From positions 49,416,001 through 49,480,000 of the forward strand of contig OZ076409.1 in assembly GCA_964187785.1 (NCBI GenBank): DNA of 64,000 bases, given 5' to 3'. The position numbers and the translations under genes were made by a program. The notes under the pieces are model-generated. The model had not been told where the DNA came from. It searched no databases and saw only the letters and a list, made by a program, of their open reading frames with translations. Within the stretch, counting starts at the first letter, position 1. Every line of letters begins with the position of its first letter. The stretch comes from Amphiscolops sp. MND2022. Lineage: Eukaryota. Shown here piece by piece: positions 8,958 to 51,389 of this stretch.

Positions 8958-10033
8958 TGGTGACAGGAGTAATTAGCGAACCAACCTCCAGCAACACCAC
9001 CCACCCCCGATCTTCGAGCCTGCCGCCTCCAAACCAGAGGCACTCCGACGAAATCATCGACAAGCTGTTAGAATCCCTGTACGCAACACAACAACAGACA
9101 GCACAATTACCCCGTCTACCAAAAACGCTTGCCACGACAATGCCAACATTTGACGGTAAAAACGAAAAGTTTGAACTCTTCGAAGATTTGTTTCAAACAA
9201 GCTTGAAGGTCCATCCCCAAATAACGGAGCAAGAGAAAATACATTATTTCCACTCCCTACTGCGAGGAGACGCCTTGCAAACCTTTCGGAACATGACCGA
9301 AACAACCAAAACCAACCTGAACGACATCATCGCCGGATTCAGACGACGATATGTAAAAACCCAGTCAATAGCAACTGCTAGGTGTAAGTGGGAAAACCTC
9401 ACATTCGACCCGGCGAACCAAACATTCCAAGATTTCTTGGAGAACTACCAGAAACTTGCCCAAGAGGCATACGCCGACGATGCACCCCGCTTTATAGAAA
9501 CCTCCTTCTACGCAAAAATGCCGATACATCTCAAAAGAGTGTTAAATCAAGCACGCCTCGAAACAGCATCATATGAAACGATGGTCCAGCACCTAGAGCG
9601 GGAGATGGAGCTCAACGGATTGGCAAATCCAGAATCCACTACATTTACCGGCATACACAATGTCGAACCCGCCAACACATCCAATCAGGGGAGACACCCG
9701 AAAACTGCAAGCACGTGCTTTGGCTGCGGACACCAGGGCCACCTCCTCCGCAACTGCAGAAAGACAAACCGAGATAAACGGAACCAAAAACCCCCCAGCA
9801 ATATCATCACCAACCCCTGCGAAACATGTGGCAAATTAAGCCACGAGACTAAAGACTGCTATTCCGGGGCGAACTGGGCAAACCGCCCTACATGGTGGAA
9901 AACGCCTAAATCAACAGGCGCCAATAGTATACCCCTACCACAACAACCTGCACCCGAAATTATACAACAACCTTCAGCAAATCAGCAGCCACAAACCGTG
10001 GCACAACCACAATACCAGCCAAAAAACTACTAA
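8615..10033 (+). CDS. gag: Element B Gag (472 aa); first ~114 codons lie inside the LTR; two CCHC zinc knuckles
   Basis: Open ORF with retrotransposon capsid-like segment (MPTFDGKNEKFELFEDLF) and knuckles CFGCGHQGHLLRNC and CETCGKLSHETKDC. Confidence 0.93.
   Translation: MPEKSQKRKLRSDQSTSQFDIETASSINDENAVLSERDFEDISNKIENKISKRLRDTELNQREILKLIESLSSKVDNLSSVNSEQGYLTTRTENSGNPTEELEEVSLSRNESSNMVTGVISEPTSSNTTHPRSSSLPPPNQRHSDEIIDKLLESLYATQQQTAQLPRLPKTLATTMPTFDGKNEKFELFEDLFQTSLKVHPQITEQEKIHYFHSLLRGDALQTFRNMTETTKTNLNDIIAGFRRRYVKTQSIATARCKWENLTFDPANQTFQDFLENYQKLAQEAYADDAPRFIETSFYAKMPIHLKRVLNQARLETASYETMVQHLEREMELNGLANPESTTFTGIHNVEPANTSNQGRHPKTASTCFGCGHQGHLLRNCRKTNRDKRNQKPPSNIITNPCETCGKLSHETKDCYSGANWANRPTWWKTPKSTGANSIPLPQQPAPEIIQQPSANQQPQTVAQPQYQPKNY
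8958..8969 (+). promoter_or_regulatory. Primer binding site of element B (TGGTGACAGGAG; tRNA-Leu-like, inferred)
   Basis: Directly follows the LTR CA and begins TGG (complement of tRNA CCA). Resembles the Leu-tRNA-type PBS TGGTGTCAGGAG. Confidence 0.85.
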
Positions 10034-13000
10034 AGCCACGTCTTCGCTTCGGGGACTACACCGACTTCAGATACTACACCATCTCTGAACCCCCGAAGGA
10101 CTTCGACAAGGAATTATTTATGGAATGCTCAGGTGAACCATCGATCGACTGGCAGCGACGATGGCTCATAAGACGCATCATCAAATTCAACAAAAACACC
10201 TTGGACAAACTCCCCTACCCAGACTGGTACACCCAAAACCCCACCCAATACAACACAACACGCAGACCATTACTTCCCAGCTCCACACCCGAAACTTACA
10301 TCTACGACCCCGACTTCGAATGCGACCCATACTACAACGACGCTCTATATGACTCAACAAACCTTGTCTTCAGACAGTCAATCAACGTACCATTTCATGA
10401 ATTCATTGCCAAAACCAACATGGACATCTCGACAACTCCAAGAAGGAAAGACGACCTCAGTCATACTCCCGAACCACAGGCTGAAGAAGAATACGACACA
10501 GAAATCACCGTGATCGTAACACCTCCAACGACTTCCCTCAAGTCAATCCTCAAACACAACAATCAATCGCCACTGGTTGACTCCCAGTCACCCACGAAAC
10601 TACCAGCCACCCCCAATGAAATCCGGGCAGCTATGACGTCGTCCCCCTCCAGTCCAGAGAGTCCTGAACATAAATACTCCACCCCTAAAACCCTGGTTGA
10701 CGACACAAAAGCCGGGGACCAAACAATTGCAAGTCAACTCACAACACAACCGAGAACTCGCCGCGTCAAACGAACTCTGACCTGCGAATTCAACCAGCAA
10801 ACAGAAGCTAAAACAGCGACAAACAGCCCACTCATCACTACCCAAACCTCAAGAGAAGAGCCAACCAACCTAGAACAAGACGAAGAATGGATTCAAACCA
10901 ACAAACAATTGCATGAAATTGCAATTACAGACCCAGAAACAAGCGAACAATGCATACCAATTTTTTCGGCCATCAATCTGAAAAAGAAAAGGAAAATGCT
11001 CTTCGCCCCGATGGATTTCAACAACATTTCAGTCGACGCGCTTGTTGACTCCGGAGCACTCGTCAACTGCTTACCAGAAAGTGAATTCCAGAAAATCAAA
11101 ACAGTAAGCCCAGACAACATCCTCAAGGAAATGGATCCACCAACATTTAAATTGCAGGTCGCAAACGGCGAGATAGAAACCCCCACAAAAACAGTTCAAC
11201 TACAATTTGAACTAGGCGACTGGACGTTCAAAGAGACGTTCATCGTAGCCACAAAGATGACAGGGCCCATCCTCGGACTAACCTTTCTCAAAAACAATAG
11301 CGCAATCCTCGACGTCAGTCAGGCCCTCTTACATTTCCCTCACCTGACTTACGCAATTTCTGCAGACGATAACGAGACAATCTCAAGACACCATAAAGTC
11401 ACTACCAAAACCCAACTCACCATCATGCCCGACCAGTGTGTAACAATTGAAGCCGGCATCAACCTACGTACCCTGACAAACACCACAGGAATCATCAACC
11501 CTACTGAACCATACTCCGGAGAACACCAACTGGTAGTAGCCAGCTCTCTATCAACAGTTACAAACTCCAAAATCGAAATCAGGGTTACCAACACATCTCC
11601 AAACCCATTCACCCTCAAAAAGAACACAAATCTTGCAGAATTCACCATTCTATCCCCCCAGGAAGCCAAGCAACTCCACCCACTCAACTCTGCAGCCCTA
11701 AAGGTATTAGCAGAAGACGATTCCGAACAGGCGCTAGAATATGTAAACGAACTCCTCAAATCGTCTGAAAAGCCTCAGACTGTTCAAAATTTCTGGTTCC
11801 CCACACCGGAAAACCCAGGAGACCCATCAACACACACACCTATCCAGAGCAGGATACTGAGAGAGATAGAAGAACTGGAAAACATCCAGAAACTCAATCC
11901 TCAAGACAGCCCTGAGGACAGAGCAACTTTCCTACCCAATTTCAAGTGGACGGATTCACAACTCAGTGATGAAGACAAAAAGGACATAGAAGCAATCCTT
12001 GTAGAATACAACGATATCTTCGCAAGGCACCGTCTTGATATCGGAATTAACAACGAATCCAAAATAAAGCTCACCCCCAAATCCGAACAGCCAGCGTACA
12101 CTCAAAGCCTACCCTGCCCAGTCAACCTGAAAGACGACTTGACAGTCGAATTGGCGTTAATGCACTACTACGGCATAATCACCACGCTCCCTTTCAGCAA
12201 GTACGCAAGCCCAATATTTGCCCAAAGAAAACCAAACGGACGCCTACGATTGCTAGTTGACTTACGAAAGATCAACAACCTCATTTCCGACGATTATATA
12301 AATAATAATCACCCTGTGAGCACCCTCTCGGATGCAGCTCAGCATTTAGCCGGAAAGAAACTGTTTTGCAAGCTTGACTGCTCTCAAGCCTACCACGTCC
12401 TGCAAATGGCAGACCAAAAATCAGTGGAACTCCTGGCGTTCAACTTTGCCAGTCGGACATTCGCCTACCTGCGACTCGCACAAGGGCTCAGCAGATCTCT
12501 CTCCTCCTTCTCGAGCTTTATGCGGGAGTATCTTGACCGAGTCATCAAAGCCGACAAGTGCGCCCAGTACGTCGACGACATCGGGATAGCTACCCATGCT
12601 GCCGAGGAGCTGAAGAACAACCTGCGTGAGGTCTTTCAGTGCATAAGAGAAGCAGGTCTGCGTCTGACAATGGCTAAATGCCAGTTCGGTGCCAAGGAAG
12701 TCGAATTCCTTGGACGAACAGTCTCACCCGAAGGAATCGCCCCACAGAGTCACAAGATCAAGAACTACCTCCAAAAACTGTCGTTCCCAAAAACCAAAAA
12801 GGGCCTACAGAGGTATATTGGTTTCGTCAATTATTATCGGAACTACATACCTCGCCTCTCCGAAAAGATAGCACCCTTCCACGAATTAGTCAAGGCAGAC
12901 AAACCAATCAAGATCACAAACGAGATCATCGGGACATTCGACAACATCAACAAGGCACTTGACAACGCTTGTGGGCTATGGCTGAAACAACCACTACCCA

Positions 13001-15396
13001 ACAAACAGTACGTCCTCATGACAGACGCGAACTTCAAAAATGCAGGCTACGCCCTCATGATTGAAGAAAACGCTGATGAAAAACTGACCTCAGTTAAAAA
13101 GACTTACGCCCCGGTAGCGTTTGGTTCCAAGACATTCTCTCCGTCTCAAATCAAAATGTCAATATATGCCAAAGAATTCTTGGCTATATATTTCGCCTTC
13201 ATGGAATACAGCCACATATTGTGGGGATCGACCAAACCGGTCATCGTCCTAACAGACAACAAGTCCGTCACACGGTTTTTTCAAACCAAGATAATACCAC
13301 CAGCCTTGTGGAACGCCTGCGATTTCGTCCTACAATTCAACTTTACGATCGCCCACGTCCCAGGGCGCATGAACACCGCAGCTGATTTCCTTTCCCGACT
13401 TGACCTAGACCCAAAGGAAAAAGTCCAACTCTTAATCCGAGACGACATTCAAACAACACCAATAGAGGTACACATTCAATCCTCCAACGTCGCAGAAGAG
13501 GAACAGTTCTACTTCCTCCCCGATGATGACATTGAAACCGAAGAACAAATTTGGGAGAGGAAGCAAAGAGCCCGCAAGAAAATTCTAGGGAACGACACCC
13601 CACCAACGCCAGGAGAAGAAGCAAATAATGAAACAGTCCAAACAGAAGACACCACAGTCATATTTCAAACGGAAATAACAAGACACAACAAAACCACCGA
13701 AGACAAAGAAAACACCCTCCCAACTGACATGCGACACCAACAGGACCAAGACAGTGTCCTCAGAAACTACAAACTGCGCCTCCTCAAGGAACCATACGAT
13801 GAACACCTGATGGCCACAGACCACAGGGCACTCCGTTACACAGCGCAAGAATCGAGAATCATACTCAAAGACGGACTGCTATACCGGCAGTACTTCGGAG
13901 AAACCGGAACAGTCAAACACCTGCAAGTACTACTCCCGGAGCAACTGGTCGACTCCTTCATCGAGGCACACCATGGAATGCACAACAAACACCCGGGAAT
14001 AACGAAAGTAATACAACAATGCAGAGAAAAGTATTACTACCCAAGTCTCGCAGCAAGGATAGCCAAACATATCAACCAATGCATGAAATGCATGCAAACA
14101 AAACGAACAGACAATCGCCTCCTAACCCCACCAATGATCGACACGTCCAAACTGGCAATGGGACCGGAAGATGCCCTACAAATGGACATCGTCCCCTTCG
14201 ACGAGCCATCCAACGGATTCACAGCGATAGTCACCGCCATGGACGTCTTTTCCCGCTACCTATTTACCTATTGTGTCACCAAAATAGATGCCCGCTCGAT
14301 CGCAAGAGTACTGGTAGACATAATGACAAGACATGCTTACCTGCCCACAACGATCATAACTGACAAAGGAACCCAATTCATGTCCGAAGTAATGGCTGAC
14401 ACCACACGCGTTCTAGGCATCCAATTGAGACACGCAACTACAAAACATGCCCAAACAATTGGTATCCTAGAACGCTGTCATGCATCCTTAAAAGAAGCCC
14501 TGAAAATATCAACAGGAGAAAGGAGAACAATGTGGCACCAGTTCGTACCAACCGCCACACTAAACTACAACACAACCTACCACTCAGCACTAGGGTGCGA
14601 ACCCAGTAGAGTATTCCATGGCAGAATACCATACAACGTGCTTGACTTAAAGTTCGGTCTCAAACAGAACCAAACCCAAAACCCAAGAACAGACATAGGC
14701 GAAGAAGTCGTCCAGAAGACCCGGATGATACACCAATCAGTAACCAAACACCTCCTCCACTCCTACATACGCTACAAACAGTACTACGATAAAAAAGCTT
14801 CTGCCCACCCCCTAGCAGCAAACGACTACTGCTACGCCTTACATCCCCAGGCAAACAACCAGGGATCGAAACTACCTTTCCGCGAGTATTTATGGACAGG
14901 ACCATTCGTAGTAGTTAAAACCCTTCCCGACAACAACTACCTAGTTCGTAAATTGCAAACGAACAAGACCCAAATTCTACACAGGATACGACTGAAACCA
15001 TGCCCCACGAAAAATCGCCTTCCTGATATACAAGTTCAAACCAAGGACTTTCAACCAGACGATGAAGTTGAAATCCTACACGATGACCTATACGCCCTAG
15101 CCTGGCAATCAGGGTTTGAACACTTCATGATGACCCATAACCACGATTCCAACAACGAATCGGCAATCAACCCGACCGATAGTCATGACGTCTTAGAAAA
15201 CATTGCCCAGGATGACACCCACGATATCCTAACGGAACCCCAACCCGAACAACAGGAATCCCAACCAGAACCCAACCCAAACCCAGAGCCTAGTTCCCCC
15301 CGCAAAGGCAAATATAACCTTCGCAGCAACCCCCCTTCAAATTGGAAAAGGGACTACGCCTACTACAACCCAATGGTTGTTAGCTCAAACGAATAA
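10021..15396 (+). CDS. pol: Element B Pol (protease, dUTPase-like, RT, RNase H, integrase), expressed by -1 frameshift
   Basis: 1758-aa ORF from 10120, open back to the slippery site at 10021. Motifs: LVDSGA, YVDD, RNase H (MTDA...TDNK), HHCC, integrase core, GPF. Confidence 0.96.
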   Translation, partial: KKLLKPRLRFGDYTDFRYYTISEPPKDFDKELFMECSGEPSIDWQRRWLIRRIIKFNKNTLDKLPYPDWYTQNPTQYNTTRRPLLPSSTPETYIYDPDFECDPYYNDALYDSTNLVFRQSINVPFHEFIAKTNMDISTTPRRKDDLSHTPEPQAEEEYDTEITVIVTPPTTSLKSILKHNNQSPLVDSQSPTKLPATPNEIRAAMTSSPSSPESPEHKYSTPKTLVDDTKAGDQTIASQLTTQPRTRRVKRTLTCEFNQQTEAKTATNSPLITTQTSREEPTNLEQDEEWIQTNKQLHEIAITDPETSEQCIPIFSAINLKKKRKMLFAPMDFNNISVDALVDSGALVNCLPESEFQKIKTVSPDNILKEMDPPTFKLQVANGEIETPTKTVQLQFELGDWTFKETFIVATKMTGPILGLTFLKNNSAILDVSQALLHFPHLTYAISADDNETISRHHKVTTKTQLTIMPDQCVTIEAGINLRTLTNTTGIINPTEPYSGEHQLVVASSLSTVTNSKIEIRVTNTSPNPFTLKKNTNLAEFTILSPQEAKQLHPLNSAALKVLAEDDSEQALEYVNELLKSSEKPQTVQNFWFPTPENPGDPSTHTPIQSRILREIEELENIQKLNPQDSPEDRATFLPNFKWTDSQLSDEDKKDIEAILVEYNDIFARHRLDIGINNESKIKLTPKSEQPAYTQSLPCPVNLKDDLTVELALMHYYGIITTLPFSKYASPIFAQRKPNGRLRLLVDLRKINNLISDDYINNNHPVSTLSDAAQHLAGKKLFCKLDCSQAYHVLQMADQKSVELLAFNFASRTFAYLRLAQGLSRSLSSFSSFMREYLDRVIKADKCAQYVDDIGIATHAAEELKNNLREVFQCIREAGLRLTMAKCQFGAKEVEFLGRTVSPEGIAPQSHKIKNYLQKLSFPKTKKGLQRYIGFVNYYRNYIPRLSEKIAPFHELVKADKPIKITNEIIGTFDNINKALDNACGLWLKQPLPNKQYVLMTDANFKNAGYALMIEENADEKLTSVKKTYAPVAFGSKTFSPSQIKMSIYAKEFLAIYFAFMEYSHILWGSTKPVIVLTDNKSVTRFFQTKIIPPALWNACDFVLQFNFTIAHVPGRMNTAADFLSRLDLDPKEKVQLLIRDDIQTTPIEVHIQSSNVAEEEQFYFLPDDDIETEEQIWERKQRARKKILGNDTPPTPGEEANNETVQTEDTTVIFQTEITRHNKTTEDKENTLPTDMRHQQDQDSVLRNYKLRLLKEPYDEHLMATDHRALRYTAQESRIILKDGLLYRQYFGETGTVKHLQVLLPEQLVDSFIEAHHGMHNKHPGITKVIQQCREKYYYPSLAARIAKHINQCMKCMQTKRTDNRLLTPPMIDTSKLAMGPEDALQMDIVPFDEPSNGFTAIVTAMDVFSRYLFTYCVTKIDARSIARVLVDIMTRHAYLPTTIITDKGTQFMSEVMADTTRVLGIQLRHATTKHAQTIGILERCHASLKEALKISTGERRTMWHQFVPTATLNYNTTYHSALGCEPSRVFHGRIPYNVLDLKFGLKQNQTQNPRTDIGEEVVQKTRMIHQSVTKHLLHSYIRYKQYYDKKASAHPLAANDYCYALHPQANNQGSKLPFREYLWTGPFVVVKTLPDNNYLVRKLQTNKTQILHRIRLKPCPTKNRLPDIQVQTKDFQPDDEVEILHDDLYALAWQSGFEHFMMTHNHDSNNESAINPTDSHDVLENIAQDDTHDILTEPQPEQQESQPEPNPNPEPSSPRKGKYNLRSNPPSNWKRDYAYYNPMVVSSNE

Positions 15397-15728
15397 ACTT
15401 TCAATATGAATTCATGAAATGGTACACCTACTACTCACTCAATTGACCTGAAACTGACTCAAATCCCTACTACTCATCTACAAACTCAACAGAAAACGAA
15501 TTCGAGGAGCAGAAGAGTGAATTATTGTAAACCCCCCAACTGACATCCCTCCTTTTCTCTCATTTTCTAAGAATGGCGATGCAATTTTCTTTTCTTGCCA
15601 AATACAACGCAATCAGACCACGTGAGCCAGAAACAAAATAGAAATAATCAGCTATAAAATATAAACTGCTAATACAAACAAAGACTAAAATCCGATCAAG
15701 TATATCTGCAACAAGCCGAACACACGAC

Positions 15729-18700
15729 TCAATTCTGGGAACTACGCTTCCTAGACACACCGGAAGCTTCTTTACTGGATGAACAACTGGGCACACTCCC
15801 AAGACGTTGGTTCTTCTTCTCCCTCACTTTTTCCGCTACACTGCTGGACCCACGGGACTGCGAAACTGACACAGTAGACATCTTTGTTGGTGGGATAGCG
15901 ACAACTGACGGAACCTTAGAACTCTTCCCGGAAGAAGGCCCAACTACGGCATCCACCTGCTGAGAATCCAACACAGGCTGTAACTTGTCCGGAGACGAGG
16001 ACGCAGAGTACAAACCCAGACCAGCTCGCCGACGCCACTCTGCCACCTGGGCCAGATAATAGGAATCAAACGCATCACGCAATTCGCGATAGAGGTCACC
16101 TCGGGCATGCAAATACAAATTACCCCACGGCGAGAAGGAAGCGTTATCCATAAAATTCTTCCCGTTTGGCAAGTTGCACTTCAGTTCCTCGAGACAATCC
16201 TTCGTCAACAGTTCTCCGGAAACGAACTTATCGAACGAAACGTACGATTGACAAGCAAAGATCGAGGACAATAAAACCTTCTTTGGAATTTTGGATCCAC
16301 TCAGTGACATATCGACGACCGGATAACAGATCTCACGCGGAACCACGGCCATTGCAGCTAACTGCACAACTCGATCCAGATTCAGACGACAGTCCAGTAG
16401 CCCGGAATCACGCAGGAAAGCGAAACTGTTCGTGATAGAAGAAACCACCCGTTTGTTCCGTCGCCGTAATTCAACGAGCAAAGATTTAAACTCGTTAGCA
16501 GCTGCCTCGCAATCCAACGAGGATAGACGCCCACAGTCCAATAAATAGGTGGTCAGATCCTTGAAGAGAACAACAGCATATGACTCATCGCCCAATAACA
16601 TCATATCTGGAGAGAAGCAACTCAGACTAGATGCCAAACCCGACTTTGCATAAGCAGACTGATTGAGCACCTTCAGGAATTCCAACAGGAAACCCTGACA
16701 CTCACGAAGGAAAGTGCGCCGGAAAGCATCACTGCAGGACGACAAAGCCACAGTAACAAGGGGCTCACCTCGAAGACACTATGTATACGGAATGTTGGCC
16801 CATGTCGTCAAAGGTAGACCGATATACTGGCTCCATGCTTCAATCTCAGGCAACGCACTCAACTTCTTCACCTTCCCAAGCAACGCCCAATAAAAATAAC
16901 AGAAATCAGCATAATTACGGCACGTGTAATCGGTGACTTCAGTTGCAAACTGCTTCTCAAAGCTGGCCTGGAAACAGGATACGAGCACATGCAGGACACT
17001 CAGCCGAGGCAAAACCAGAGTATCCGCAAGTATCATCTGCCCTATGTCAAGAGGAGGTTTACTTTTGGGAGGCATCACAGTCCCAGTCTCCTTCAGGAAC
17101 AATCTCACGTCGTCCCAATGATGGATCAACTCGGAAATAACGGCGCACAAAGAAGCAAAAGGAACTTGACGCTGACGAACGCACCTGTGAAACTCAGATA
17201 AACCCATCAGCCATGGTTGACGAACAGCTTTAACCAAGCGCAATAACAAATAATCCAATATGGCAAAAGGATCCAGCAAATTTGTTCCAACCAGCCCAGC
17301 GTCCCGAACATGATCTCGGAACGTGTCAGACGTATACTCCAAGACAGGCAACGGCACAGGACGACTTCCGGTTTTGCACCAGCTCGAGAAGACATTGAAT
17401 AATGTGGAAGAACAACCACGAACTGCAACAGGAGACTGCTCAGCAGGAAGAACGGCAAGAATTCGAGACAAACACTTGATCTCAGCATCACACAAACCCG
17501 CGGAAGACTCCTCCCAGAGAACACATACTTCACGGATAACATCATCAGCAAAGAAACAGACGAAACAGCGCAACCCGGTGTCATCCTCGCGAAATGTCAA
17601 ACTGAATTCGGAGTTGTTGCAGCCAGTTTGGACTCGACGCAGAATACGAGGATACAGAGTCTGACTCAATACCACAAACGATTCAGTCTTACTCCAGGTG
17701 GCCTGGGCATAGCTAGTCTCAACTGGAATCGTTGTCCTGAACTGGCTCCAGAGTCTTCTAAGGAAGCTGTGAGATCCCCCGCTCCGCAACAACTCAAACA
17801 GACCACCCACGAGCGTCGAAGAGGGAACGTTCGAGACTACTCCAACGAGAGCATCCACTTCATCCTCCACGAAGGCATTCTTCTTACCAAGGACTACTGG
17901 CGGCGTCTTTTCAATTTCTGCACGCAACTCAGGAGAAATAGTGGCAACAGCAATCTCATCAAACCCAGCGGTATACACGGTATCCTCATGATCGAGACGA
18001 TAACGCTGATCTTTGGCAAAGTGAGTTTTGCAGCCAAAGTGCCGCCAGATCTCGAGTTCCCCCCGCCACAGGAATGAAATGTCCTTCCGACATATGGCAC
18101 AGTTGAACCCGTTTGGATTCTTGTCCGCCCTCTGGCTAACGAACAGACGAGGAATAGGGTGAATTGCCATGCTTCTTCGAAGAACATGACGCTCGGTCTG
18201 CCGTTTCTTCCTCCTCTCGTATTTGGCAAACAGTTTGCTCTTAGTCACCTCCTCAGCGTCCAAATGACCACGAGCCCGATCCAACTGAATCCCCTTCTGT
18301 TTGAGAAGCTGCATGATTTTGTCTAACTCTACAACACAAAGGGACAATCACATCCCGATAATACTACTTTGACATAAACCCACCCCCAGACAACCCTGAA
18401 GACATATGGTACCCCTAAACAACTATAAGTGGGATCATGACGCAACTGCGAACAAACAAACAACAGACATATACAACTTACGACGAGAAAGAGAACGTTC
18501 TTCTGCTCGACTATGAGTTCGCTCCAAGCGAACAGCTGCCTGGCCGAAAGCCAACACTTGCGAAGCAGATAAGCACACCGCTCCCTCCGGCACATCCTTT
18601 AGTCCAGCTAAAAAACAATGAATTCATAAGGACAATCAACGCACAAACACGACGCCCCCCCCCACAACAAGGCACCAACCAAAAGACACACGATACAAAT

Positions 18701-19712
18701 AATTGAAGACGATAATAACCTTTTGCCCACTCATTGTGGATGACCGACCGCTCCAACCCCTCTACTGGTCGTGAATGCTGTGTACGCTCACGCTTTGGTC
18801 GGAAACCCGCATCACCACCACCACTCGACACAGCCTCGTCGGCCACAGTGGGAACAATCATTGCATCGGAAGACGACGAATCCACTCCCATAGAAGCTTC
18901 TCCATGGACTTGTGAAGAACCAACTGAAATCAACTCGTACTCATCAATAAGCAGAAACAATCATTCGAACGAGCACAGCCAAGGTATTTATATAATGCTA
19001 GAGGAAGAAAGAAATACCCACCTTCAAAACCTGCAATAGGCGACGCCGCTGATCTAGTGGTCATCCCAGCACACCCTCCAGACTGAGACCAACGGCCTTG
19101 GTTAGATGGACTAGCACCACTAACAGATGCCACAGCAGAGCGAGACCCAGGGACATAATCATCATCACGAGAATCATCGGACAATCCTAAAACAGCAAGA
19201 AAGGTGGATGAAATGACGCGTCTGCATACTAGCATGAAAAGTTAGCTGGCCACTAACATTTCGCTAAGCAACTTACCCTCTAAATCACATAAATAGTCCA
19301 AATCGTGGCGTGCATCACTTTCTGTCGAATGCATTGAACCAGCATCGTCACTATCTGAACTGCCATTGTTACTCGCACTCTCAGAACCCGTGTCATCGGA
19401 ACAGTCATCATTGTCAATCTCCCCGAATCCACTACCACGTTTAGCACACTGGGACTCCAACCCAGCCAACGACTCCATAACTTCTTCTTCACCACTTGAC
19501 TCAGCAATAATCAATCGGGACTCAGCAGCACTTTCTTCCTCCTGACTCTCTTGACCTGCCTCTTGCAGCAGAACGCCCGTCAGTTCACTCTCTCCCTCAT
19601 GACTCTCTTGACCTGCCTCATGTAACAAGATACCTTCTCCCTCGCTCTCCACAACTCCAATTTTTCCAGACCGCAAAATCCGCTGGTCATCTTCATCAGT
19701 CGAATGCGACAT
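15729..19712 (-). CDS. Element B antisense multi-exon cargo gene: acidic N-terminus, C2H2/BED-like zinc finger, hAT-transposase-like body. One in-frame TAG at 16779-16781 (possible pseudogene copy)
   Basis: Predicted exons 19712-19277, 19186-19031, 18923-18720, 18607-18482 and 18328-15729. All four GT-AG introns are phase 1 and join in frame (~1174 codons). Finger CAICRKDISFLWRGELEIWRHFGCKTH. Homologous to the cargo gene in C. Confidence 0.75.
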
Positions 19713-19991
19713 AATAAACACTCAAATCTGAAATAAACTCAAACCTGATACCAAAAGTCGAAGACGTGGCGTAAAACCAACGCTAATACTAATATTACAA
19801 ACTAATAGTATGACGTAATGGAAGTCATTCAGTCTGCCAGCTGAAAACTTTCCCATTCATGCAAGCGGCGTGAACAGAAGAAAAGAACGGAATTATCATT
19901 CAATTACTCGACCATTCCGCAGAACAGCCGCTCAGCATTGCTTACAACTATTACTATTTATTGCATACAATTTATCTACTCATCGGATCAA

Positions 19992-20642
19992 ATGAATTCA
20001 TCGACACTAAATTCCTCAACCGATTATTTCATTTTGGACCGCGACCAAGACGCTGCCCCAGTAAACCCCTGCGCACATTCAACACCTAAAGCGCTTGGTG
20101 ATAATTGCGAAAATACTCAAACACCAATTATCGAGGATATTTACGAGATTATCAATACTGGGACAGAACATATTGTCCTTTACCATGAGTCGGCGCCGAT
20201 ATCTATCCTAGAAACAGCCCAATCAGATACATTACCATCCAGGAAATTTACAAACTTCAACCCAATTATCCCGGATGACGAATTCATGAGCCCCCCTAGA
20301 AACTACGAGAATATGGACAATTGGCTATACGGGCCGCACGATGGGACAATCAGCCCCATCTCCAGTAACTCTAGTTCGATAGGTTACTTCTCAGGAAGTG
20401 ACTGGTCAACAGATTCGTCCTGGATGTCTTATGATTCAATGGTACAGTCTATATTTCAACCCCCCATCTCTTCCCCATTCAGGCCAATTTCACCACTTCT
20501 TCCCACAATGGACGTCTCTCATCAAAGCCGGGGACTGTCACAGCCGCCACAGGGCCGTGAAATAATAAGAACAGAGAGAACGCCAGAGGAAAGAAATGGA
20601 GAAATTAACCAAGAAGAAGCTAATAAACCATCACAAACCTGA
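19992..20642 (+). CDS. Element B ORF3: S/P/D-rich protein of unknown function, ending inside the 3' LTR
   Basis: Open frame (ATG at 19992) reads through the PPT and ~107 nt into the LTR; same position as ORF3 in C. Confidence 0.6.
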   Translation: MNSSTLNSSTDYFILDRDQDAAPVNPCAHSTPKALGDNCENTQTPIIEDIYEIINTGTEHIVLYHESAPISILETAQSDTLPSRKFTNFNPIIPDDEFMSPPRNYENMDNWLYGPHDGTISPISSNSSSIGYFSGSDWSTDSSWMSYDSMVQSIFQPPISSPFRPISPLLPTMDVSHQSRGLSQPPQGREIIRTERTPEERNGEINQEEANKPSQT

Positions 20643-22584
20643 AAGAAAACAATCAACAAACAAACACTCATTGATATTGAACAACCCTGTAAGTGCATAA
20701 TATTAATATCATCAACCCCCTGCAGTACCTGAAATACATAAATATGTAAATAATTAAATAATAATAACTTGTTGTAAATGCGATTTGTTTGCAGTAGCTT
20801 GACCAATACGCTGATTGAAGTTATTCCAACCAGCGCACTGACCAGCCTACCGTCCCAATATCTGCGTAGCAAAACACACTAATTCTCACTGTCCCTTTAA
20901 TTAACCAATCAGCGCTAAGCGCGAATGTGCAGTATTAATTCAGTTACTCTGCTAGCCAAGCAATTCAGTCGACAAAGCTGGGACGCACGCCTGGCTGCTC
21001 GACTGAATTACCTGAAATGCTAGTGTAATCAAACGACGCTAAATGTGAAATAAACTCAAATTCAGAGCTTAGAAGAAGCTTAAAATATGCAGTTTTAAGT
21101 AATAGAGTTGGAATATGTAATATTTATAATATACCAAAGTACAATTGTTAAGTTGTCAACCATGATTTCTGGGACAACCGCTGGGACAACCGGTTTATAT
21201 TTATAAACTGGGACGACCGCCGGGACAACCAGCCCAACTTAGATGGAGCAGTAAAGAACTAAAACACCAATAGATAATGAATAACTGCCTTAATACATGT
21301 AAATGTGCTATCTTAATTATACATGGAAGGTTACAAATCATTCAAGCGAAGCGAAATGATGAATAATATTAGTACGAGCCGGGACTCCCGCCTGGACAAC
21401 CGTTTGATTAATTAATGATGTATCAAATTTGAGTGAAATATTAATACGTTATGATAGTGACAATCGTTCGACATACCATATTTGTTGACCGAATGGAAAT
21501 TACTCCCAGATGCTACCTAACTGAATAATCTTGCCCCCCTTCACATGCATTAATTTGGGCTGTTAGCCTGGTTGCTTGACCTCGTTTGAGTATTATGTCC
21601 GTCGACCAGGCATGTGTTTAATGTCAAATTTGTGAAAGTGCGTCGATAGTTGTGATCATCACCCCTAATTTTGTCAATTCACAAATTATTGCAGTTTTCT
21701 CTTATGTTGAATTGCTTATTTTATTTAAAGGAAAATTCATTTCCTTTTCCCGCTTCAGTAGCTAGGTTCATGAATTTCAGTGCCAACTTCACCTTCGGCG
21801 TCTTGAAAAGGCGGGAAATGAAGAAGAAAGGGACGCGGAATTGGGAAGCGGCAGGAAGTGAATTCCCACTTTTCTTTAAAGTGGGTTGAAACCGAATGCC
21901 GAGTCCCGAGGAAGAATACCTTAATTGGATTTCCCCGCTTTGCAAAGGACGCCGAGGTGAACAAGGTGTGAATTCACGCGCGGGGTTTTCCCCGCGTGTC
22001 TAGCGTAAAGTATAAATACCTGAAGCGGGATTAGGAAAAGTTAGTTGATAATTTGATTTTTCCAAGTGCGTTTGATTAACCGTTCTCCGGAAATTTTGCC
22101 TTTGTAATAATTGTTTTAATTACTTTGCTTAATATAATTCTTTTGTTTCGTAAACCCTGACAATTCACTGAACTGAAGTCTCCATTACGTTTGTAACGAC
22201 TCAAGTTTAATTGAAATATTGTCTCTCCATTATTTTGCAAGATGCCTTAGAAATCTCAAAAACGAAAGTTGAGGAGTGACCAGTCAACTAGCCAGTTCGA
22301 CATAGAGACGGCAAGCTCAATCAACGACGAAAACGCCGTACTTTCGGAAAGGGATTTTGAAGACATATCTAACAAAATTGAGAATAAAATTTCTAAGCGC
22401 CTCAGAGACACTGAGCTCAATCAACGCGAGATATTAAAATTGATTGAGAGTCTGTCGTCCAAAGTTGACAACCTATCAAGTGTCAATTCTGAACAAGGTT
22501 ATTTGACGACCAGGACCGAGAATAGTGGAAACCCCACTGAAGAACTAGAAGAAGTTAGTTTGTCCAGGAACGAGAGTTCCAACA
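20536..22584 (+). repeat. Element B 3' LTR (2049 bp)
   Basis: Direct repeat of 6907-8957 with a handful of differences, including GAG>TAG in gag codon 3 (22248). Preceded by a weak PPT (AAAGCCGGGGAC) and followed by TSD GTATT. Confidence 0.97.
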
Positions 22585-25013: not shown

Positions 25014-26744
25014 TGTCGCAGGCTGCCGCCTGTGACGGCACAAGGATTACAACAACAGCTGTTGGCCAGGATGTGGCCCCAGGAACTCTCCCTATATCTA
25101 TTAAAGTAAACTAAAACTTACTCTTAAACTTTTACGTTGCTTATGTATTTTGTTGCCATATTATTTTAGAAAATAGCCAAAAGGGCCGTACCGGGACGTA
25201 TTCCCTTGTTACCAAAACTTAGAATTATTGCACTTGTTGATTATTTATAGTCAACCTTAGTTTTGAATGTCAACTGTATATTAGTCTGTTAACATAGATC
25301 GTGCTGTGTTGTTGTATTATCAATGTAATGCAGTAATAATCAAAGATTATAGCAAGCAACTAAGAGAAAGTACGGAAACGAGTTCAAATGGACTCCTGTA
25401 CTTTCTTGCCAACGCCGCTTGCGCTCACCCAATTAGCCAATCAGAGGCCTTCATTTTCGAGTGCTTTATTCTCTTTTGCCAATTACGGCCTTTGTACAAT
25501 ATGGACGAGTGTGCTATTAATGCCGTTCAGGCGAACGGCCTAATCCGGCTATTTAGTCTCCAATGAGTGAAGCACTTGTAATTGATGCTAATTTCATGTA
25601 GTAGTATTTATTTAGTAGTAGGCTTTGTTGATCATGAAATACCAATTTGAAGTGCTATTTAGTACTTTGTTGTGTTACTAACAAATAGTTGCCCGATTCT
25701 GCTTTAATATAACCCTGTTGCATGAAATTTGATGTTATTGCCTTAACAGGCCTTTTGCCATTGTACCTACGATAAGTATTTAGACCAAACAAGTTTGTTG
25801 TGCTATCACGTGCTAAAGAACGCGTACCTGTATCAACAAATACCTGTTCGATGGAAATATTTTGCCAAATATGTAAACGATGCTAACGGTTGAATGTTTG
25901 TTCCTTTGATGTATAATATTTGGAATGGATGGCGTTCATCCCGTGACCATCAGAAATGCAGTCATATGATATTGTCTTAGTCAAGGAATGTAAAGAATGT
26001 GAGTGTCACTCTTTCGGGGGTATAAATACCTGTGCCTTTGAGAGAGGAGACACTTCTTATTTGCTCTCTTCTGAAAAAGACTATCATATTAGTACAAACG
26101 GTTTCACTGTTATTTTCGAGATATAATCTAATTCAATTTTATACTCGAAGTTTTCCTTATGCCTACTACAAGAAAACAAAAGAAGACTAGAAAGTCCAGA
26201 GGACTAGAGATCCTTTCTGATATCGAAAACCTAGATATAATGTTAGGAGGCGATCGTTACAATGGAACTGTAAGAGAAAGGAGTTTAGACAGTAACTACG
26301 TTAGAAGGAGAGAAAGTATCGTGAGTAATAATTTAGACAATGAGGGCGGAAGCCTGTTTTCAAATTGTAGAAATGATGAACCTAGGACAAGTGCCGATCT
26401 TGGCCAAAACTCAGCTGAAGCAAACTCACTAGCTGAGATAAACAGGTTGTCTAGCGAATTGAACTCTAGGATATCCCGTGAGATGGATGAAATGATGAGT
26501 AATGTTGATACGCTGATCCAAAGGGCCATTAATGAAGCTATTAGTAGTCAAGTATTGCCTCAAATACAGAATGCCATAATGGCCGGATCAGGCCGAGAGA
26601 CCAGAAGGGGATGGGAAGCCCCAGTTGAGAGACCGGAAGTAAATGCCGAGGAACAGCGAATTCCAAGTGCTAAGGCCGACTGTAGAAATGAACAACATGA
26701 TGGATACCGACCAAGTGGTCAATCAAGCCGTCATGCTCATGACA
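25014..26744 (+). mobile_element. Solo LTR D (1731 bp) of the large-LTR clade
   Basis: TGTCGCAGGC...CATGACA with TSD GTACC on both sides; contains a TATA-like box and the gag N-terminal frame. Confidence 0.92.
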
Positions 26745-35453: not shown

Positions 35454-37084
35454 TGTCGCAGGCTCCCGCCTGCGATGGGAACTTTTACACCATCAATTAC
35501 AGCTGTTTTCGCGCCCTCCCAGGTACTCTACCAATAAACTAGAGGAAAGGACCATGTGTCCCATTGTCATGACGGGACAAAACTTCAAACTGAGCTTGTA
35601 ATATTTTTACGGCATGTCTATCATTCTATTTTCAGTTTTGACAGCCTTATATATATAATCTTGTGCAAATTAGTAATCGGAAATACCATTTGGTTATTTG
35701 AAAACTTTGAAGTTGATTTTGATATATTGATGCATGTAAATAATGTATGTTTAAATGTGTTAGCTAAGAAATTGGACACCAAGGCGTACAGGCAAAGGAA
35801 ACGAGTTCAAATGTTTCCTTTCCTGTCTCGCTGGACACGCAGTCCGTTCAAATTCTTAGCCAATCAGAACACGCCATTCATTTCATTCACTGTGCGCAGT
35901 ACTCTAAATTAAAGGACTCAAAGGCCACGCGCCGTCAGCTAGCAGTAATTTGCTGCCTATTTACGGTAAATGGACACTGAGTCCAAATTGAAGTAAAGTG
36001 CAATTTACAGTGGTAAATAAAGGCTATGATTGGTGTTTCTAATAAATACTCGTTTTGATGAAGATTACTGGACCATTTGTACCATTTGATGCTAGATACT
36101 AATAATTTACATGAATACTCAGATTAATGAATTGGTACATGTAAGTTATGGTTGATCAAATGTAATTGCATGTAATGTTGCTTAACCTCACACATGAAAG
36201 GCCTTGAAGGATGCTTGGACCTACAATCCTTCTATATATGGAATTGTTGAAGGCGCTTAAATAAATCACCCCTTTGAAGTGACCCTTTCGTCATGCCGCC
36301 TTCATGGCTATAAATAGTAGGTGCTATTTTTAGATAGCTGTGAAGGCTATTTTTAGAACGTGACCCTCATTATTTTGCAAGTCATGTAAACCTGAGTATA
36401 TATACCGCGGACCCTAGGTCCCAAGGACTTTTTCAATTTCCTTGATACCGTAATACTCAAACTTGTAAAATCGTTCCAACATACTCTGTTTGCAAGCCTG
36501 AGAACTTAATTTAAATTCTTACCTCTTGCAATAAACTCTTATGCCTTCCACAAGAAGACAGAAAGCGAAAGCTAGAAAATCCAAAGAGATGGACATGTTG
36601 TCCGATATGGACAATTTAGACGTGATGATAGGGAGTGAAAGTCCTTTAGAAAGAGAGTTAGCAGATGTAATAGACCAATCTTCCATTAATGGTGACATAG
36701 AAACTGATAGTCACTCGAGAAATGATCTTGGAGATTTCATTCAAGGAAATGAGCCTCATGGTCGAAATGACATAAGACAATCCTTTGAAACCCTTTCAAA
36801 TGAATTTAATCTTAGGTTATCTCAAGAGATGGATTCCATGATGGCCATGGTACATAGTCAGATAAATAGAGCAATCAGTACTGCCATATCAGAGAAGGTG
36901 TTACCGGAGATTCAGAATATTGTGAGTTCAATGTCTTCCTCTGGAAACAGGGACACTGAGGCTAGCATGTCCCCTGACAGTCAGGAAAATAGGGAAAACC
37001 CATCTGGCTTGAAAACAAAATTATTGAAAAAGGATTCACGGTCCGTTGGTGATTTGAGAGACACCACGGGACGTGGCTCTTACA
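35454..37084 (+). repeat. Element C 5' LTR (1631 bp)
   Basis: TGTCGCAGGC...CTCTTACA; direct repeat of 49606-51236. Confidence 0.97.
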
Positions 37085-38223
37085 TGGTGACAGGAGCTAA
37101 CGAAGCCCAGCAGCCTATACCTGAATTTCTCACTGGACGAATCCACTCAATCCCGAACCTAGAGAGACAGCAATCTAACCACAATGTCTCTCTGGACACC
37201 ACTCTGCCAGCGCCAGAACCAGAGGCCACAGAGCCACCTCAGGACCCGCTCAATAGATTGGCCGATGTACTAGTCAATTTGCAAAACAAACCCCAAACGA
37301 TGACTATCCGGCCTGTCCAAACAACCCCTATGACGTTTGACGGAAAGAGTGAGAAATTCGAACTCTTTGAAGATTTGTTCCACACAATGATCAAAATGCA
37401 ACCGGCCATGACAGAGCAAATGAAAATTAACCATTTCCATTCACTGCTCAGAAAAGGAGCCTTGCAGACCTTCAGGAACATAAACTCAATTAACCGCCAA
37501 ACACTCGAGGACGTACTGATCATATTCCGGAGAAAATATGTCAAACCGGAATCCCAAGCAACGGCAAAACACAAATGGCATCGGTTGACGTTCGACCCGA
37601 ATACCATGAAACTGCCGGATTTCTTAGAAGAACTGAACCAGGGGGCAGAAAAAGCTTTCGGTGAGAATGCAAAAAGCATGATTGACAGCTTATTGTATGC
37701 AAAACTGCCTCCAAAATTAAAACGATCTGTCAATATGGCCCGCCTGGAGAACGGGACATATGAGGAAATCGTCGCTCATCTTGAAAGAGAGCTTGAACTC
37801 AACGCATTAGAAGAGTCAGACGATTTGCCAATCGCCACAATGGCCTCTGCGTCCACCAGTAACAACAATCTGCTCTCTAATGGCATAAATACTAATAAGG
37901 ACGCACAATGCTCTTATTGTAAAGCCACAGGCCACTTTTATAAGAGCTGTCCCAAATTGAAAAAGAAGAAAGAATTGGAGGACAAAAATGGCAAAAAGCC
38001 CCAACGTCCCACATACCCAGAATGTCCTACTTGCGGAAAGAAAAATCACCCCGTTGAAAGATGCTGGAAAGGGGCTGGAGCACAACTACGTCCCAAAAGG
38101 ACAAGACCCGAAGATAAAGCCGATGAAAACTCCGGCGATGAAAAGTTGTCTAAAAAATCAACTAACCCCGAAACTGCATCTTCGAGCCAATCAAACCCAC
38201 GAAAAACGGACTCAAAAAACTAA
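36541..38223 (+). CDS. gag: Element C Gag (560 aa); first ~181 codons lie inside the LTR; two CCHC knuckles
   Basis: MTFDGKSEKFELFEDLF capsid-like segment; knuckles CSYCKATGHFYKSC and CPTCGKKNHPVERC. Confidence 0.93.
   Translation: MPSTRRQKAKARKSKEMDMLSDMDNLDVMIGSESPLERELADVIDQSSINGDIETDSHSRNDLGDFIQGNEPHGRNDIRQSFETLSNEFNLRLSQEMDSMMAMVHSQINRAISTAISEKVLPEIQNIVSSMSSSGNRDTEASMSPDSQENRENPSGLKTKLLKKDSRSVGDLRDTTGRGSYMVTGANEAQQPIPEFLTGRIHSIPNLERQQSNHNVSLDTTLPAPEPEATEPPQDPLNRLADVLVNLQNKPQTMTIRPVQTTPMTFDGKSEKFELFEDLFHTMIKMQPAMTEQMKINHFHSLLRKGALQTFRNINSINRQTLEDVLIIFRRKYVKPESQATAKHKWHRLTFDPNTMKLPDFLEELNQGAEKAFGENAKSMIDSLLYAKLPPKLKRSVNMARLENGTYEEIVAHLERELELNALEESDDLPIATMASASTSNNNLLSNGINTNKDAQCSYCKATGHFYKSCPKLKKKKELEDKNGKKPQRPTYPECPTCGKKNHPVERCWKGAGAQLRPKRTRPEDKADENSGDEKLSKKSTNPETASSSQSNPRKTDSKN
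37085..37096 (+). promoter_or_regulatory. Primer binding site of element C (TGGTGACAGGAG)
   Basis: Directly after the LTR CA; identical to A and B. Confidence 0.85.
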
Positions 38224-41200
38224 TTTCGCCACGACTCCAAATATGTAACAAGATGTCAGTACGACAGTACGTCATATCTGACCCTGCAAACATTACATAT
38301 AAACAAACCCAAAACGACACCACAGGGATGCCATCGACTGTCTGGCAGCAGCAGATGGCCGACGCCCGCAGAGAAACTCAATATATCATCCATAGTGATC
38401 ATCCATACTTATATCGACGGAACAGTAACCGCAACGACTTGGAAACTCACTTTCGCCCTTTAAAAACTGTCGAAGATTATAACCCTCAATACTATGACCC
38501 CGAGTATGGCAAAGACCCATACTGGGACGAAGAACTATACGACAAAACCAATTTACAATTTCGAAATGAAGATTACCCCCCAACTGACGACGAGGACGAC
38601 CCAGACATTGAAGATAACACACTGTCTCGGGCCCTCATTGATCTTTGGCAGCCGAACTTTGAGGCAACTATACAAGAAGTAGACACCATACACACACAGG
38701 AGGACCACAAGGCTCCTAATAGTCTTTTAGATGAGACAGTCTTCTTACACCTCCTAGTGACCAACGAAGGAGAATTACCATACGTTCCCCTTTCAACAAA
38801 CCTTGGACTTAAATTCAAACGACGAATGCTCTATTTCCCAATGGACTTTGGGGAATTAACTCTAGATGGCCTGATAGACACTGGAGCTCACTCCAGTGCA
38901 ATCCCGGAGGCAGACCTCAGGAAAATACGCCTATTGGCCCCTCAATCCATTGTAAAAGAAGGTCCTGCCCCATCTTTCCAAATAATGGTCGCAAATGGAG
39001 ACTTAGAAACCCCAAAGAGCACAGTCGAACTAAAATTCGAAGTGGGCGACATAGAATTTCACGAAATTTTCATTGTAATGGAAAAACTGTCAAGCCCTAT
39101 AATTGGACTAATGTTCCTTCAAAGGAACCACACTGTCCTGGATATGCGCCAAGGTATACTCAACTTCCCCTATTTTTCGATGCAACTCAAGACGGCTGAC
39201 CATAAATACTCAAATGTTTTGGAACCCATCCTCAATCCTGAGGATGTCACAATTCCGCCCAATGACCATGTGGTCATACCCATTCAATCACAAATTTACG
39301 CAGAAAATGCAGTTACGGGCATATTGCAACCCAGCGATCTTCTGCACGAAGAAGGCGACATAACCTTCTGCGCCGCCATAGTCACATTACACGAAGGGGC
39401 TATGAGAATACACGTTAACAATTTCACTGATCAACCCTATAAAATAAAGAAAGGGATGCACATTGCAAACTTCTCAGTGATGACCCCTGAACAGATGAAA
39501 CACGTCAGGCCAATAGACCCAGTGTCCACCTGGCACTTACTGAATGAAAATGAAGACGACGCTATTTATTATATAAGTAGCCTTCTTAAAGCTAACAGAA
39601 ATAATGACCAATACGAACAATATTGGTTCCCGACGCCTGAAAACCCAGGGGACGAAACGACCCACACCCCAATACAACAAAGAATTCTCAAAGAATTACG
39701 AAATCTGCAAAGTTTAGAACAACTCAACCCGCACGACGATACGGAATCTCGTCGAAAATTTCTCAGTAATTTTGATTGGAAGGATTCAATGTTACAACAA
39801 CATGAAATCAGACAAATAGAAACTCTATTAGTGGAATTCCATGACATCTTTGCGCGCCATAGATTTGACATTGGCGTCAATGAGGAATTTACGGTCAAAC
39901 TGACCCCAAAAGACGAATCACCTGCCTACAGTCAGAGCCTACCTACACCAGTCAACCTCAAAGAGGACATATTGGTCGAACTGGCGTTACTTCATAAATA
40001 TGGTATTATAACGACATTACCATTCTCAAAGTATGCCAGTCCCATTTTCGCGCAGAAAAAGCCCAATGGGAAATTGAGACTGTTGGTTGATTTGAGGAAA
40101 ATAAATAATCTCATCTCAGACGATTATATCAACAACAATCACCCAGTCAGTACCCTGACGGACGCGGCGCAACACATGGCAGGCAAAAAGCTCTTTTGCA
40201 AACTTGACTGTTCTCAAGCTTATCATTGCCTTCCTATGGCAGACCAGAAGTCGATTGAAATGCTAGCTTTCAACTTCGCCAGCAGGACATTTGCATATAG
40301 AAGATTAGCCCAAGGACTCAGTAGAGCCCTGTCGGCCTTCTCCAGTTTCATGAGGGAATACTTGGATCGTGTCATAAAAGCAGACCAATGCGCTCAATAT
40401 GTGGACGATATTGGAGTTGCGGCGACAGACGCCGACCAGCTTATCGTCAACTTAAGAGCAACTTTCCAATGTATCCGAGAAGCAGGATTGAAATTGTCCA
40501 TGCACAAGTGCCATTTCGGCGCTACTGAAATTGACTTTCTTGGGAGAACCATTACACCTGAAGGCGTAAAACCCCAAAAAGAAAGAATCACTAACTTCTT
40601 GGAAAAGACGAAATTCCCAAAGTCCAAGAAGGCCTTACAACGCTACCTTGGTTTCCTCAATTACTACAGGAATTATATTCCAAGGCTATCTGAAAAACTA
40701 GTTCCCTTCTTCCAATTACTCAAAAAGGATGAAAAGGTACTAGTTACGCAAGAGCTAGTTGAACAATTTAATGAGATCAACCGCGATTTAGACCGATGCA
40801 GTCAATTGGCGTTGAAACAACCTCTGCCGAACAAACAACTGGTCCTTATGACTGACGCGAGCTTTACAGCAGCCGGTTACGCCATATTGACCGAAGACGA
40901 CCCAAATCAAAAATACACTTCTGTTAAAAAGTCCTATGCGCCGATTGCATACGGATCCAAAACTTTCACGCCTTCTCAGCTCAAAATGTCGATATATGCA
41001 AAGGAATTCCTAGCTATATATTATGCATTTAAGGAGTTTGGACATATCTTTTGGGGAACACCTCAACCCGTGATTATCCTCACAGATAACAAATCGGTCA
41101 CAAGGTTCTTCCAAACAAAGATAATTCCACCGCCTCTCTGGAATGCTTGTGATTTTGTCATTCAATTCAACTTCATTATAGCTCATATTACAGGCAAAAA

Positions 41201-43418: not shown

Positions 43419-43612
43419 TCAGACATGTAAATTAAAGTCCCATAAGTCTCTTGGACTAAACTAATATTTTTTACTGGGACTACTCTGACTCCGAACTTTT
43501 CAAATAAATACAACAAACAACATACAAAACGCTTCAATAAATAAAAGGAAGATCAGTTCGTTTATGTTAAATACAAAATAACAGACTAAAGAACAAATGT
43601 ACATATGTACAT

Positions 43613-51236: not shown

Positions 51237-51389
51237 CGTATCATCTTGAGGTTGTTTTGGTCTCTGATAATGTTTTTGAACAATTCCTTTATTATTATCA
51301 TTTTAGCATGTGAAGTTCTGGGGAACGATACGAATGAAGAGAATTTCTTTTCAACTCTTTTCAATGTGACCTTTTGTTGTATTCTCATA

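Follow-up and report, generated by a model that had tools for sequence, protein, structure and literature searches.

A conserved ORF3 reading frame ends inside the 3' LTR of Ty3/Gypsy elements of Amphiscolops sp.

Elements and genes in the window

The window, the whole 64-kb stretch of DNA that was analysed, contains a cluster of long Ty3/Gypsy elements within a 1.07-Gb genome (Table 1). Elements B and C are full-length, and D and G are solo LTRs. The assignment to Ty3/Gypsy is based on the PR-RT-RNase H-IN order that Pfam returns for the pol products of B and C. Direct LTRs with TG...CA ends and 5-bp target-site duplications (TSDs) are present in B, C, solo D, solo G and one full D copy, and the LTR pairs of C and B are 99.9% and 99.6% identical, respectively. 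A tRNA primer site, a 12-nt match to a genomic tRNA-Leu(CAG), follows the 5' LTR. The reverse transcriptase (RT) core of B shares 79-80% identity with those of C and D, which are 90% identical to each other. At the downstream end of the LTR, gag reads through the LTR end and the primer site in frame as M-V-T-G (36541-37096 in C; 26159-26744 in D). In agreement with the initial annotation, which had proposed that both ends of these LTRs are coding, the first ~195 codons of gag lie within the LTR, and the D/G pN/pS in this part is 0.37.

Table 1. Features of the elements in the 64-kb window (positions are those of the window).
Feature	Position	Strand	Remarks
Full-length element B	6907..22584	+	LTRs 6907-8957 and 20536-22584; TSD GTATT
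Antisense hAT-transposase-like gene of B	15729..18347	-	Largely intron-free; one in-frame stop in this copy
Sense ORF of B	19992..20642	+	Enters 3' LTR across purine tract, in the same phase as ORF3
Solo LTR D	25014..26744	+	1,731 nt; TG...CA; TSD GTACC
Predicted hairpin/dyad at start of LTR D	25015..25036	+	nt 2-10 with 15-23; overlaps codons 1-7
ORF3 tail codons 1-27 in D	25016..25096	+	Relic; own frame stops at 25112-25114
TATA-like box, candidate LTR promoter of D	26021..26026	+	Motif match only; ~1 kb downstream of ORF3 tail
5' part of gag within LTR D	26159..26744	+	~195 codons
Full-length element C	35454..51236	+	LTRs 35454-37084 and 49606-51236; TSD CGTAT
gag of C	from 36541	+	Starts inside LTR
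Primer-binding site of C	37085..37096	+	12 nt complementary to tRNA-Leu(CAG) 3' end
pol of C	38166-43418	+	PR-RT-RH-IN order
Antisense gene of C	43613..47697	-	Intron-split; head-to-head with ORF3; hAT-transposase-like
Spacer between antisense gene and ORF3 of C	47698..48821	.	~1.1 kb; candidate bidirectional promoter
ORF3 of C	48822..49694	+	Likely AUA start 48822; first AUG 48855 (279 aa); stop 49692-49694
SUMO-interacting-like motif I-I-Y-I-S-S-D-E-E, C ORF3 residues 30-38	48942..48968	+	Pattern match, column counts
CxxCG plus helical hairpin, C ORF3 residues 196-242	49440..49581	+	Sole confidently folded part of the ORF3 model
8-nt purine tract of C	49598..49605	+	Read by ORF3 as P-G-G-V
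Solo LTR G	59765..61630	-	1,866 nt; TSD ATATT
ORF3 tail in G	61542..61628	-	28 codons plus TGA; relic in solo LTR

Several further features of the window and its elements were recorded. At the left window edge (156-5039, minus strand) lie the decayed remains of a third gag-pol element, which is partial and has B and C as relatives. In C pol, a weak dUTPase match (residues 358-440; E 7e-5, just above the Pfam cut-off) falls between protease and RT; this match is not reported for B. The segment 27393-29078, with a long imperfect inverted repeat (27911-28616) and further flanking inverted repeats, looks like a foldback or MITE-type element, and its short repeated motif is also found around the insertion site of solo D. 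Direct repeats of 297 nt (93%) flank an A-rich region with several mid-size ORFs (31034-34837 and 50900-54133), and a distant inverted relative lies near 53478-53687. The 3'-end motif of the primer tRNA-Leu has 884 matches genome-wide, 871 of them on one strand, and is carried by a tandem array with a period of ~296 nt (C8:35587800-35643637). An Rfam scan over solo LTR D gave one sub-threshold match, which was taken as chance.

The ORF3 tail at the start of the LTR

The C-terminal 28 residues of ORF3 are specified by the initial 86 nt of these LTRs. In element C, the open frame spans 48801-49694 and its last 28 codons lie within the 3' LTR. The related peptides that the initial annotation had read from the LTR starts of D, G and C are all found where it placed them, and its count for the 19 codons that follow CDG in D and G, 11 synonymous differences and three replacements (A/T, V/I and D/E), is exact. 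At the nucleotide level, codons 9-27 of D and G differ by 13 synonymous and three nonsynonymous changes (pS 0.78, pN 0.074; Fisher p = 4e-7, for a region picked after the similarity had been seen). The corresponding D/G ratio is 2.3 and 12.8 in the other two sense frames and 0.12 in the antisense frame that has the same third positions, but the latter contains a stop in G. Codons 1-8 show zero nucleotide differences between D and G. The D copy in the window carries two additional nucleotides just after codon 27 relative to the other 39 scored copies, so that its frame continues to its own, later stop; the other 29 D copies retrieved end in ...LPIY followed by the stop codon.

The upstream part of the frame was examined in copies from the genome (D family: 679 candidate LTR starts, 40 scored, 30 retrieved; G family: 134 candidates, 40 scored, 30 retrieved). 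Of the copies with an internal flank (12 for D, nine for G), nine and six, respectively, have at least 200 open codons that enter the 3' LTR in phase, and none of the other 39 flanks (0/18 for D, 0/21 for G) does. The upstream open frame in D/G 3'-LTR copies is mostly 228 codons from an AUG and enters the LTR in the right phase, which is what the initial annotation had proposed to look for in full-length D/G elements. Upstream of the two solo LTRs, the open Met-free codons number only 4 (D) and 37 (G). During LTR replication, reverse transcription copies the 3' U3 to both ends, the 5' LTR included, and 5' and solo LTRs therefore carry the coding signature without an upstream frame. The tail is translatable solely in the 3' LTR, and its copies in 5' and solo LTRs are inherited relics. 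The earlier statement that the first ~90 nt of the LTR are coding consequently applies to 3' LTRs and fails for 5' and solo LTRs, those of D and G included. Genome-wide, 7,306 LTR starts fit the ORF3-tail motif; a reversed control returns 0.

Selection was assessed on a family alignment of 149 LTR starts from 30 families. The search pattern that retrieved some of these starts specifies bases 1 and 2 of each of codons 1-8 and leaves third positions free, so the amino-acid constancy of these codons is partly built in. In a GY codon model across the 30 families, omega is 0.10 for the whole tail (lnL -1810 vs -1952 at omega 1, a gain of 142) and 0.049 for codons 9 onward (lnL -1431 vs -1592, a gain of 161), and the ORF3 body gives 0.091 (219 codons, 17 families); these values are approximate, as synonymous sites are near saturation. 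At the terminal P-G-T-L-P, the amino acids are kept in 21-28 of the 30 families and third positions are saturated (0.66-0.76). In 27 of the 30 families the tail has a length of 27-28 codons, and an in-frame stop within 81 nt occurs in none of the 30, compared with 14 and 22 of the 30 in the other sense frames. The ORF3 proteins of D/G and C are homologous at 27-29% identity. These data confirm purifying selection on the ORF3 C-terminus, and, given the in-phase upstream frame and a dN/dS far below 1, ORF3 is almost certainly a real protein gene, as had been supposed. Both results that the initial annotation had named as contrary to its proposal, a dN/dS near 1 and the absence of an upstream frame, were examined, and neither was found. 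The sharp drop in identity expected at the stop codon is not clear, with means of 0.55 before and 0.51 after it. For D and G, identity is 0.72 without gaps before the stop and 0.70 with five gap breaks after it; only gaps rise past the stop codon, and blastn carries the D/G similarity to ~160 nt.

The conservation could alternatively stem from a DNA or RNA signal at the LTR end alone, such as an integrase attachment site, a hairpin or a factor site, with the peptide a by-product. The identity of codons 1-8 between D and G points in this direction, as do depleted third positions at codons 1, 2, 4 and 5 (0.07-0.30 across 30 families) and a 9-10-bp hairpin predicted at the LTR start of D, G and C. 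From codon 8, however, third positions are saturated and the residues G, P, G, T, L and P remain conserved, with the low omega given above. Moreover, the stop is fixed at 28-29 codons into U3, the long in-frame upstream ORF is found at 3' LTRs only, and the three families that have C at nt 5 retain T at nt 20, which keeps the Cys codon despite the broken pair. A signal without a protein is refuted for codons 8-28 and holds as a co-constraint for nt 1-23; as the full explanation it is extremely improbable. The initial attribution of conservation to protein selection stands for codons 9 onward, and the invariance of codons 1-8 (SQAAACDG) is in part a nucleotide-level constraint.

In the predicted hairpin, 263 of 270 stem cells pair across the 30 families. 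The mismatches, seven cells in total, include pair 5-20 in four families and pair 9-16 in two; pair 8-17 changes from G-C to A-T in two families. The mean fold is -15.0 kcal/mol, compared with -8.7 +/- 0.6 kcal/mol for the same peptide in other synonymous codons (0/300). Loop base 14 is nearly invariant (29/30 families), for which pairing provides no explanation. A stem is also observed at the LTR start of the B clade, where the LTR-crossing peptide is unrelated: 81% of cells pair and three pairs are doubly changed in 8 of 11 retrieved copies (three near-duplicates were left out), and the shuffle control used here is not a probability, since related sequences can beat a shuffle without structure. 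A nucleotide co-constraint on nt 1-23 is very likely. At the U3 end, nucleotides 2-23 would act as a cis-signal in the form of a hairpin or dyad, and nt 1-23 may be a dyad that is recognised as DNA. The additional use of nt 2-23 as a cis-signal would also explain why SQAAACD is the most invariant stretch.

The sequence immediately before the 3' LTR differs between clades. Of the 23 families with a 3' LTR, 18 have 6-8 purines at the end of the internal region, translated as PGGV or a similar sequence. The other five, D and G included (3' LTR junctions L018, L036, L125, L131 and L149), end in CCCGC(A/T)G, read as P-A-V, with 1-2 purines, and they form one branch (support 100/99). Element B, which is more distant in RT, has a G-run before its 3' LTR, so loss of the polypurine tract (PPT) in the D/G clade is the simpler reading. 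The full D copy has no purine tract, although its two LTRs agree at 1,723 of 1,733 positions and its TSD is exact, and the D/G clade contains many near-identical copies with exact ends. PPT-adjacent sequence matters in other elements, according to the available part of one report (PMC10085805). A role of the hairpin in D/G plus-strand priming is hypothesized, and this clade makes plus-strand priming without a PPT a directly testable question.

Expression, product and proposed role of ORF3

The predicted ORF3 product is ~260-290 aa long, and its frame starts 700-790 nt within the element. The sequence K-I-A-K-K, with synonymous variation at every codon, precedes the first AUG. The corresponding pattern AAR-ATH-GCN-AAR, with third bases free, stands before this AUG in 22 of 23 families; 18 matches are in frame with the tail and four are out of frame, and one reads KIAKT. 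The Ile codon is ATT in 14 cases, ATA in six, ATC in two and ATG in none. Its context is mostly CAAR-AUH-G, with A at -3/-2 and G-C at +4/+5 in 17 of 17 families and C at -4 in 14. A context of this type favours near-cognate initiation. No upstream in-frame AUG is present in 14 of 17 families, and in five families an in-frame stop lies only 8-11 codons upstream. The seven codons just upstream of K-I-A-K-K appear neutral (omega 2.6, not different from 1), and the extension itself gives an omega of 0.004 that is biased low by the choice of rows by motif. The replacement of the first AUG by CTG in one copy (L101) was considered as support for a non-AUG start and rejected, as a sister copy has ATG. 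Together, these sequence features suggest that ORF3 probably starts at a non-AUG codon, AUU, AUA or AUC. The AUH start would give a short basic extension, and the downstream AUG would give a shorter form.

The Lys before this Ile is invariant, which could mean that translation starts further upstream by an unseen route. One such route is a spliced, LTR-started RNA, as for env, in which K-I-A-K-K would be the start of the 3' exon. The available text of a study of rotifer elements describes the ORF3s of LTR retrotransposons as typically made from spliced messages (PMC5408684). A splice acceptor is indeed found at K-I-A-K-K in C, but the other families do not share it: within 45 nt upstream of K-I-A-K-K there is no AG at a shared offset, and 3 of 17 families have no AG at all. 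In addition, splicing would require an 11-kb intron that extends across the antisense gene. A spliced origin is thus considered unlikely, and transcription of ORF3 from an internal promoter appears somewhat probable. The 1.1-kb spacer between the antisense gene and ORF3 contains blocks conserved among C, D and G and is consistent with a shared bidirectional promoter. A sigma-70 scan of the spacer was at chance level and is irrelevant for a eukaryote.

The antisense gene, which lies between pol and ORF3, is split by introns in C, D and G, whereas in B it is largely free of them. Its pN/pS between D and G is 0.31-0.45, which indicates constraint. A model of a B-clade antisense protein (P0292) matches the Hermes hAT transposase (8edg) with a Foldseek E value of 1.9e-4 and, in the VIA comparison, a Z score of 13.9 (rmsd 5.1, 392 aligned), compared with 6.3 for the next family. 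The N-terminal CCHH finger of this protein (C72, C75, H92 and H98) is conserved, and no conserved acidic residue is seen at the RNase-H strand ends or in the late helix region, where the catalytic D-D-E would be expected, with positions taken from secondary structure and not from residue-level superposition. The C gene is called hAT-transposase-like by its position and by a zinc-finger pattern common with the folded B-clade protein. Antisense genes of this type are also found at L091/L092 and L093/L094. Transposases that lack catalytic residues have been argued, in the accessible part of a preprint, to act as regulators (10.64898/2026.08.24.746577). The sense ORF of B shows no homology to ORF3 (probability 0.1%) and has 150 scored matches, down to 63% identity and mostly open, which suggests that the LTR-crossing slot is reusable by unrelated genes.

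A word search returned 101 ORF3 homologues, and a profile search returned 579 representatives at 50% clustering, of which the best 150 are all at most 316 aa long. No named protein is found among the members examined from 17 clusters. One homologue (P0085), which lies on short contigs, is at most 59% identical to any of 150 scored places in this genome, and the family probably extends to another species. ORF3 is present in most copies and conserved like the other element proteins, as in a conserved sense additional ORF (aORF-3S sensu PMC7264820). Its location in the env position, in sense and before the 3' LTR, would fit one of the known kinds of ORF3, either envelope-like or enzymatic. Yet none of 86 sequences has a 19-residue hydropathy window above 1.6 or, in other words, a transmembrane segment; the N-termini are hydrophilic on average, without a hydrophobic leader. 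Pfam finds nothing better than E 0.01 in the same 86 members (best E 0.011), GDSL esterase and DEDDy nuclease profiles included, and no PDB sequence matches better than E 0.5 (best 0.54), so that a known envelope or enzyme is highly improbable. PHROGs match 0 of 6 ORF3 sequences. The ESM Atlas yields no usable match for the whole protein (residues 170-279 at best 0.76), Foldseek gives no match to the model at E 0.001 or better, and the best hit in a VIA-wide structure comparison (Z 6.4 over 53 residues) is a generic helix pair; these database and fold nulls do not establish a new fold.

The ORF3 model is mostly disordered (mean pLDDT 58), with a confident helical pair at residues 203-242 after CxxCG and a pLDDT below 50 in the LTR-coded tail. 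A hydrophobic core followed by SSDEE, which resembles a SUMO-interacting motif (SIM), is present in 63 of 72 long homologues and lies in a low-pLDDT region of the model. The arrangement fits the SIM definition of a four-residue hydrophobic core, a Ser/acidic flank and a disordered region, as given in the available text of a review in which SIMs are loose motifs (PMC12751080). In one decayed copy (L179), a TA microsatellite is expanded within the codons of this motif. Other conserved features of ORF3 are a P-x-S-P-P motif and the nearly invariant residues C134, H178, C196, C199 and C257. These five residues could form a zinc site, and together with the basic N-terminal extension and the mostly disordered model they would suit a cytoplasmic or particle-associated factor, for example a nucleic-acid chaperone, a zinc-binding adaptor or a translation or export aid, in which the acidic motif is not a SIM. 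Against such a factor, which is rather unlikely, the hydrophobic core and the following S-S-acidic sequence are retained in homologues that share no more than 26-38% identity with the C protein, as expected of a phospho-SIM. A role of ORF3 as a SUMO-linked nuclear regulator is tentatively put at just under an even chance.

Taken as a whole, the reading slightly favoured here is that ORF3 is a conserved accessory protein with an LTR-coded tail, expressed from an internal promoter with a non-AUG start, and acts as a SUMO-binding nuclear regulator. The frame runs from inside the element across into the 3' LTR, and selection would act on the 3' U3, from which standard LTR replication would supply the 5' LTR. 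Nucleotides 2-23 would double as the hairpin or dyad cis-signal at the U3 end, and ORF3 and the antisense transposase-like gene would form a head-to-head accessory cassette. The SIM-like motif is predicted to engage the host SUMO-dependent chromatin machinery and so keep the element active. A more specific version, which is speculative and improbable as a whole, is a counter-silencing cassette under one bidirectional promoter. The disarmed hAT transposase would be its DNA-binding arm and the non-AUG, SUMO-binding ORF3 its effector; the U3 boundary would be triply coded as protein tail, hairpin and integrase end; and the hairpin would have taken over plus-strand end definition, so that one clade could drop its PPT.

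Comparison with known systems

ORF3 represents a conserved family of accessory proteins that belongs to no known kind, and the retrotransposon lineage that carries it is very abundant. An annotation that treats LTRs as non-coding, or genes as AUG-started, would clip both of its ends. Should the SIM reading be true, ORF3 would be a candidate transposon-encoded handle on SUMO-dependent silencing. Viral regulators that bear SIMs include HSV-1 ICP0, KSHV K-bZIP and LANA, and EBV BGLF4 (PMC12751080, available text). As described there, these share with ORF3 a short hydrophobic core and a Ser/acidic flank in a mostly disordered parasite protein; in contrast, no RING or kinase domain was found in ORF3, no homology is claimed, and SUMO binding is putative.

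Extra genes between pol and the 3' LTR are described in plant elements, both sense (aORF-3S or env-like) and antisense (aORF-3R, in Retand, Grande and RIRE2; PMC7264820, PMC11963269), and rotifer elements carry ORF3s in this interval (PMC5408684). In contrast to these, as far as the accessible portions of the three papers describe them, the present elements have a sense and an antisense gene at once, head-to-head, and the sense gene, which lacks transmembrane and enzyme domains, terminates within the LTR. The antisense gene, by the folded B-clade protein, matches Hermes hAT, whereas most plant aORFs are of unknown origin according to the accessible text of the review. A judgement by titles and abstract beginnings in the openly accessible literature outside Repbase found no published description of the ORF3 family.

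The nef gene of HIV-1 crosses the PPT. In part for nef and as a whole for sag of MMTV, the frame of a 3'-end accessory gene lies in the U3 of the 3' LTR, as in ORF3 (PMC12789967, available text). ORF3 differs from both in its env-less Ty3/Gypsy host, in having only 28 U3 codons, in lacking a sequence or fold match and in its likely non-AUG start. In plant chromoviruses of CRM group A and some Reina elements, a pol frame runs through the PPT into the 3' LTR (PMC3059260, PMC3605345). In the parts of these reports that are available, a Ty3/Gypsy frame likewise passes through the PPT and a conserved motif (CR in CRM) is coded in the LTR. The overlap in CRM is the integrase C-terminus of pol; here, it belongs to a separate gene ~5.4 kb downstream of pol, since the pol of C stops at 43418 and the LTR-crossing frame is separate from it. 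The LTR-overlap layout is therefore already known, and the ORF3 protein family is not.
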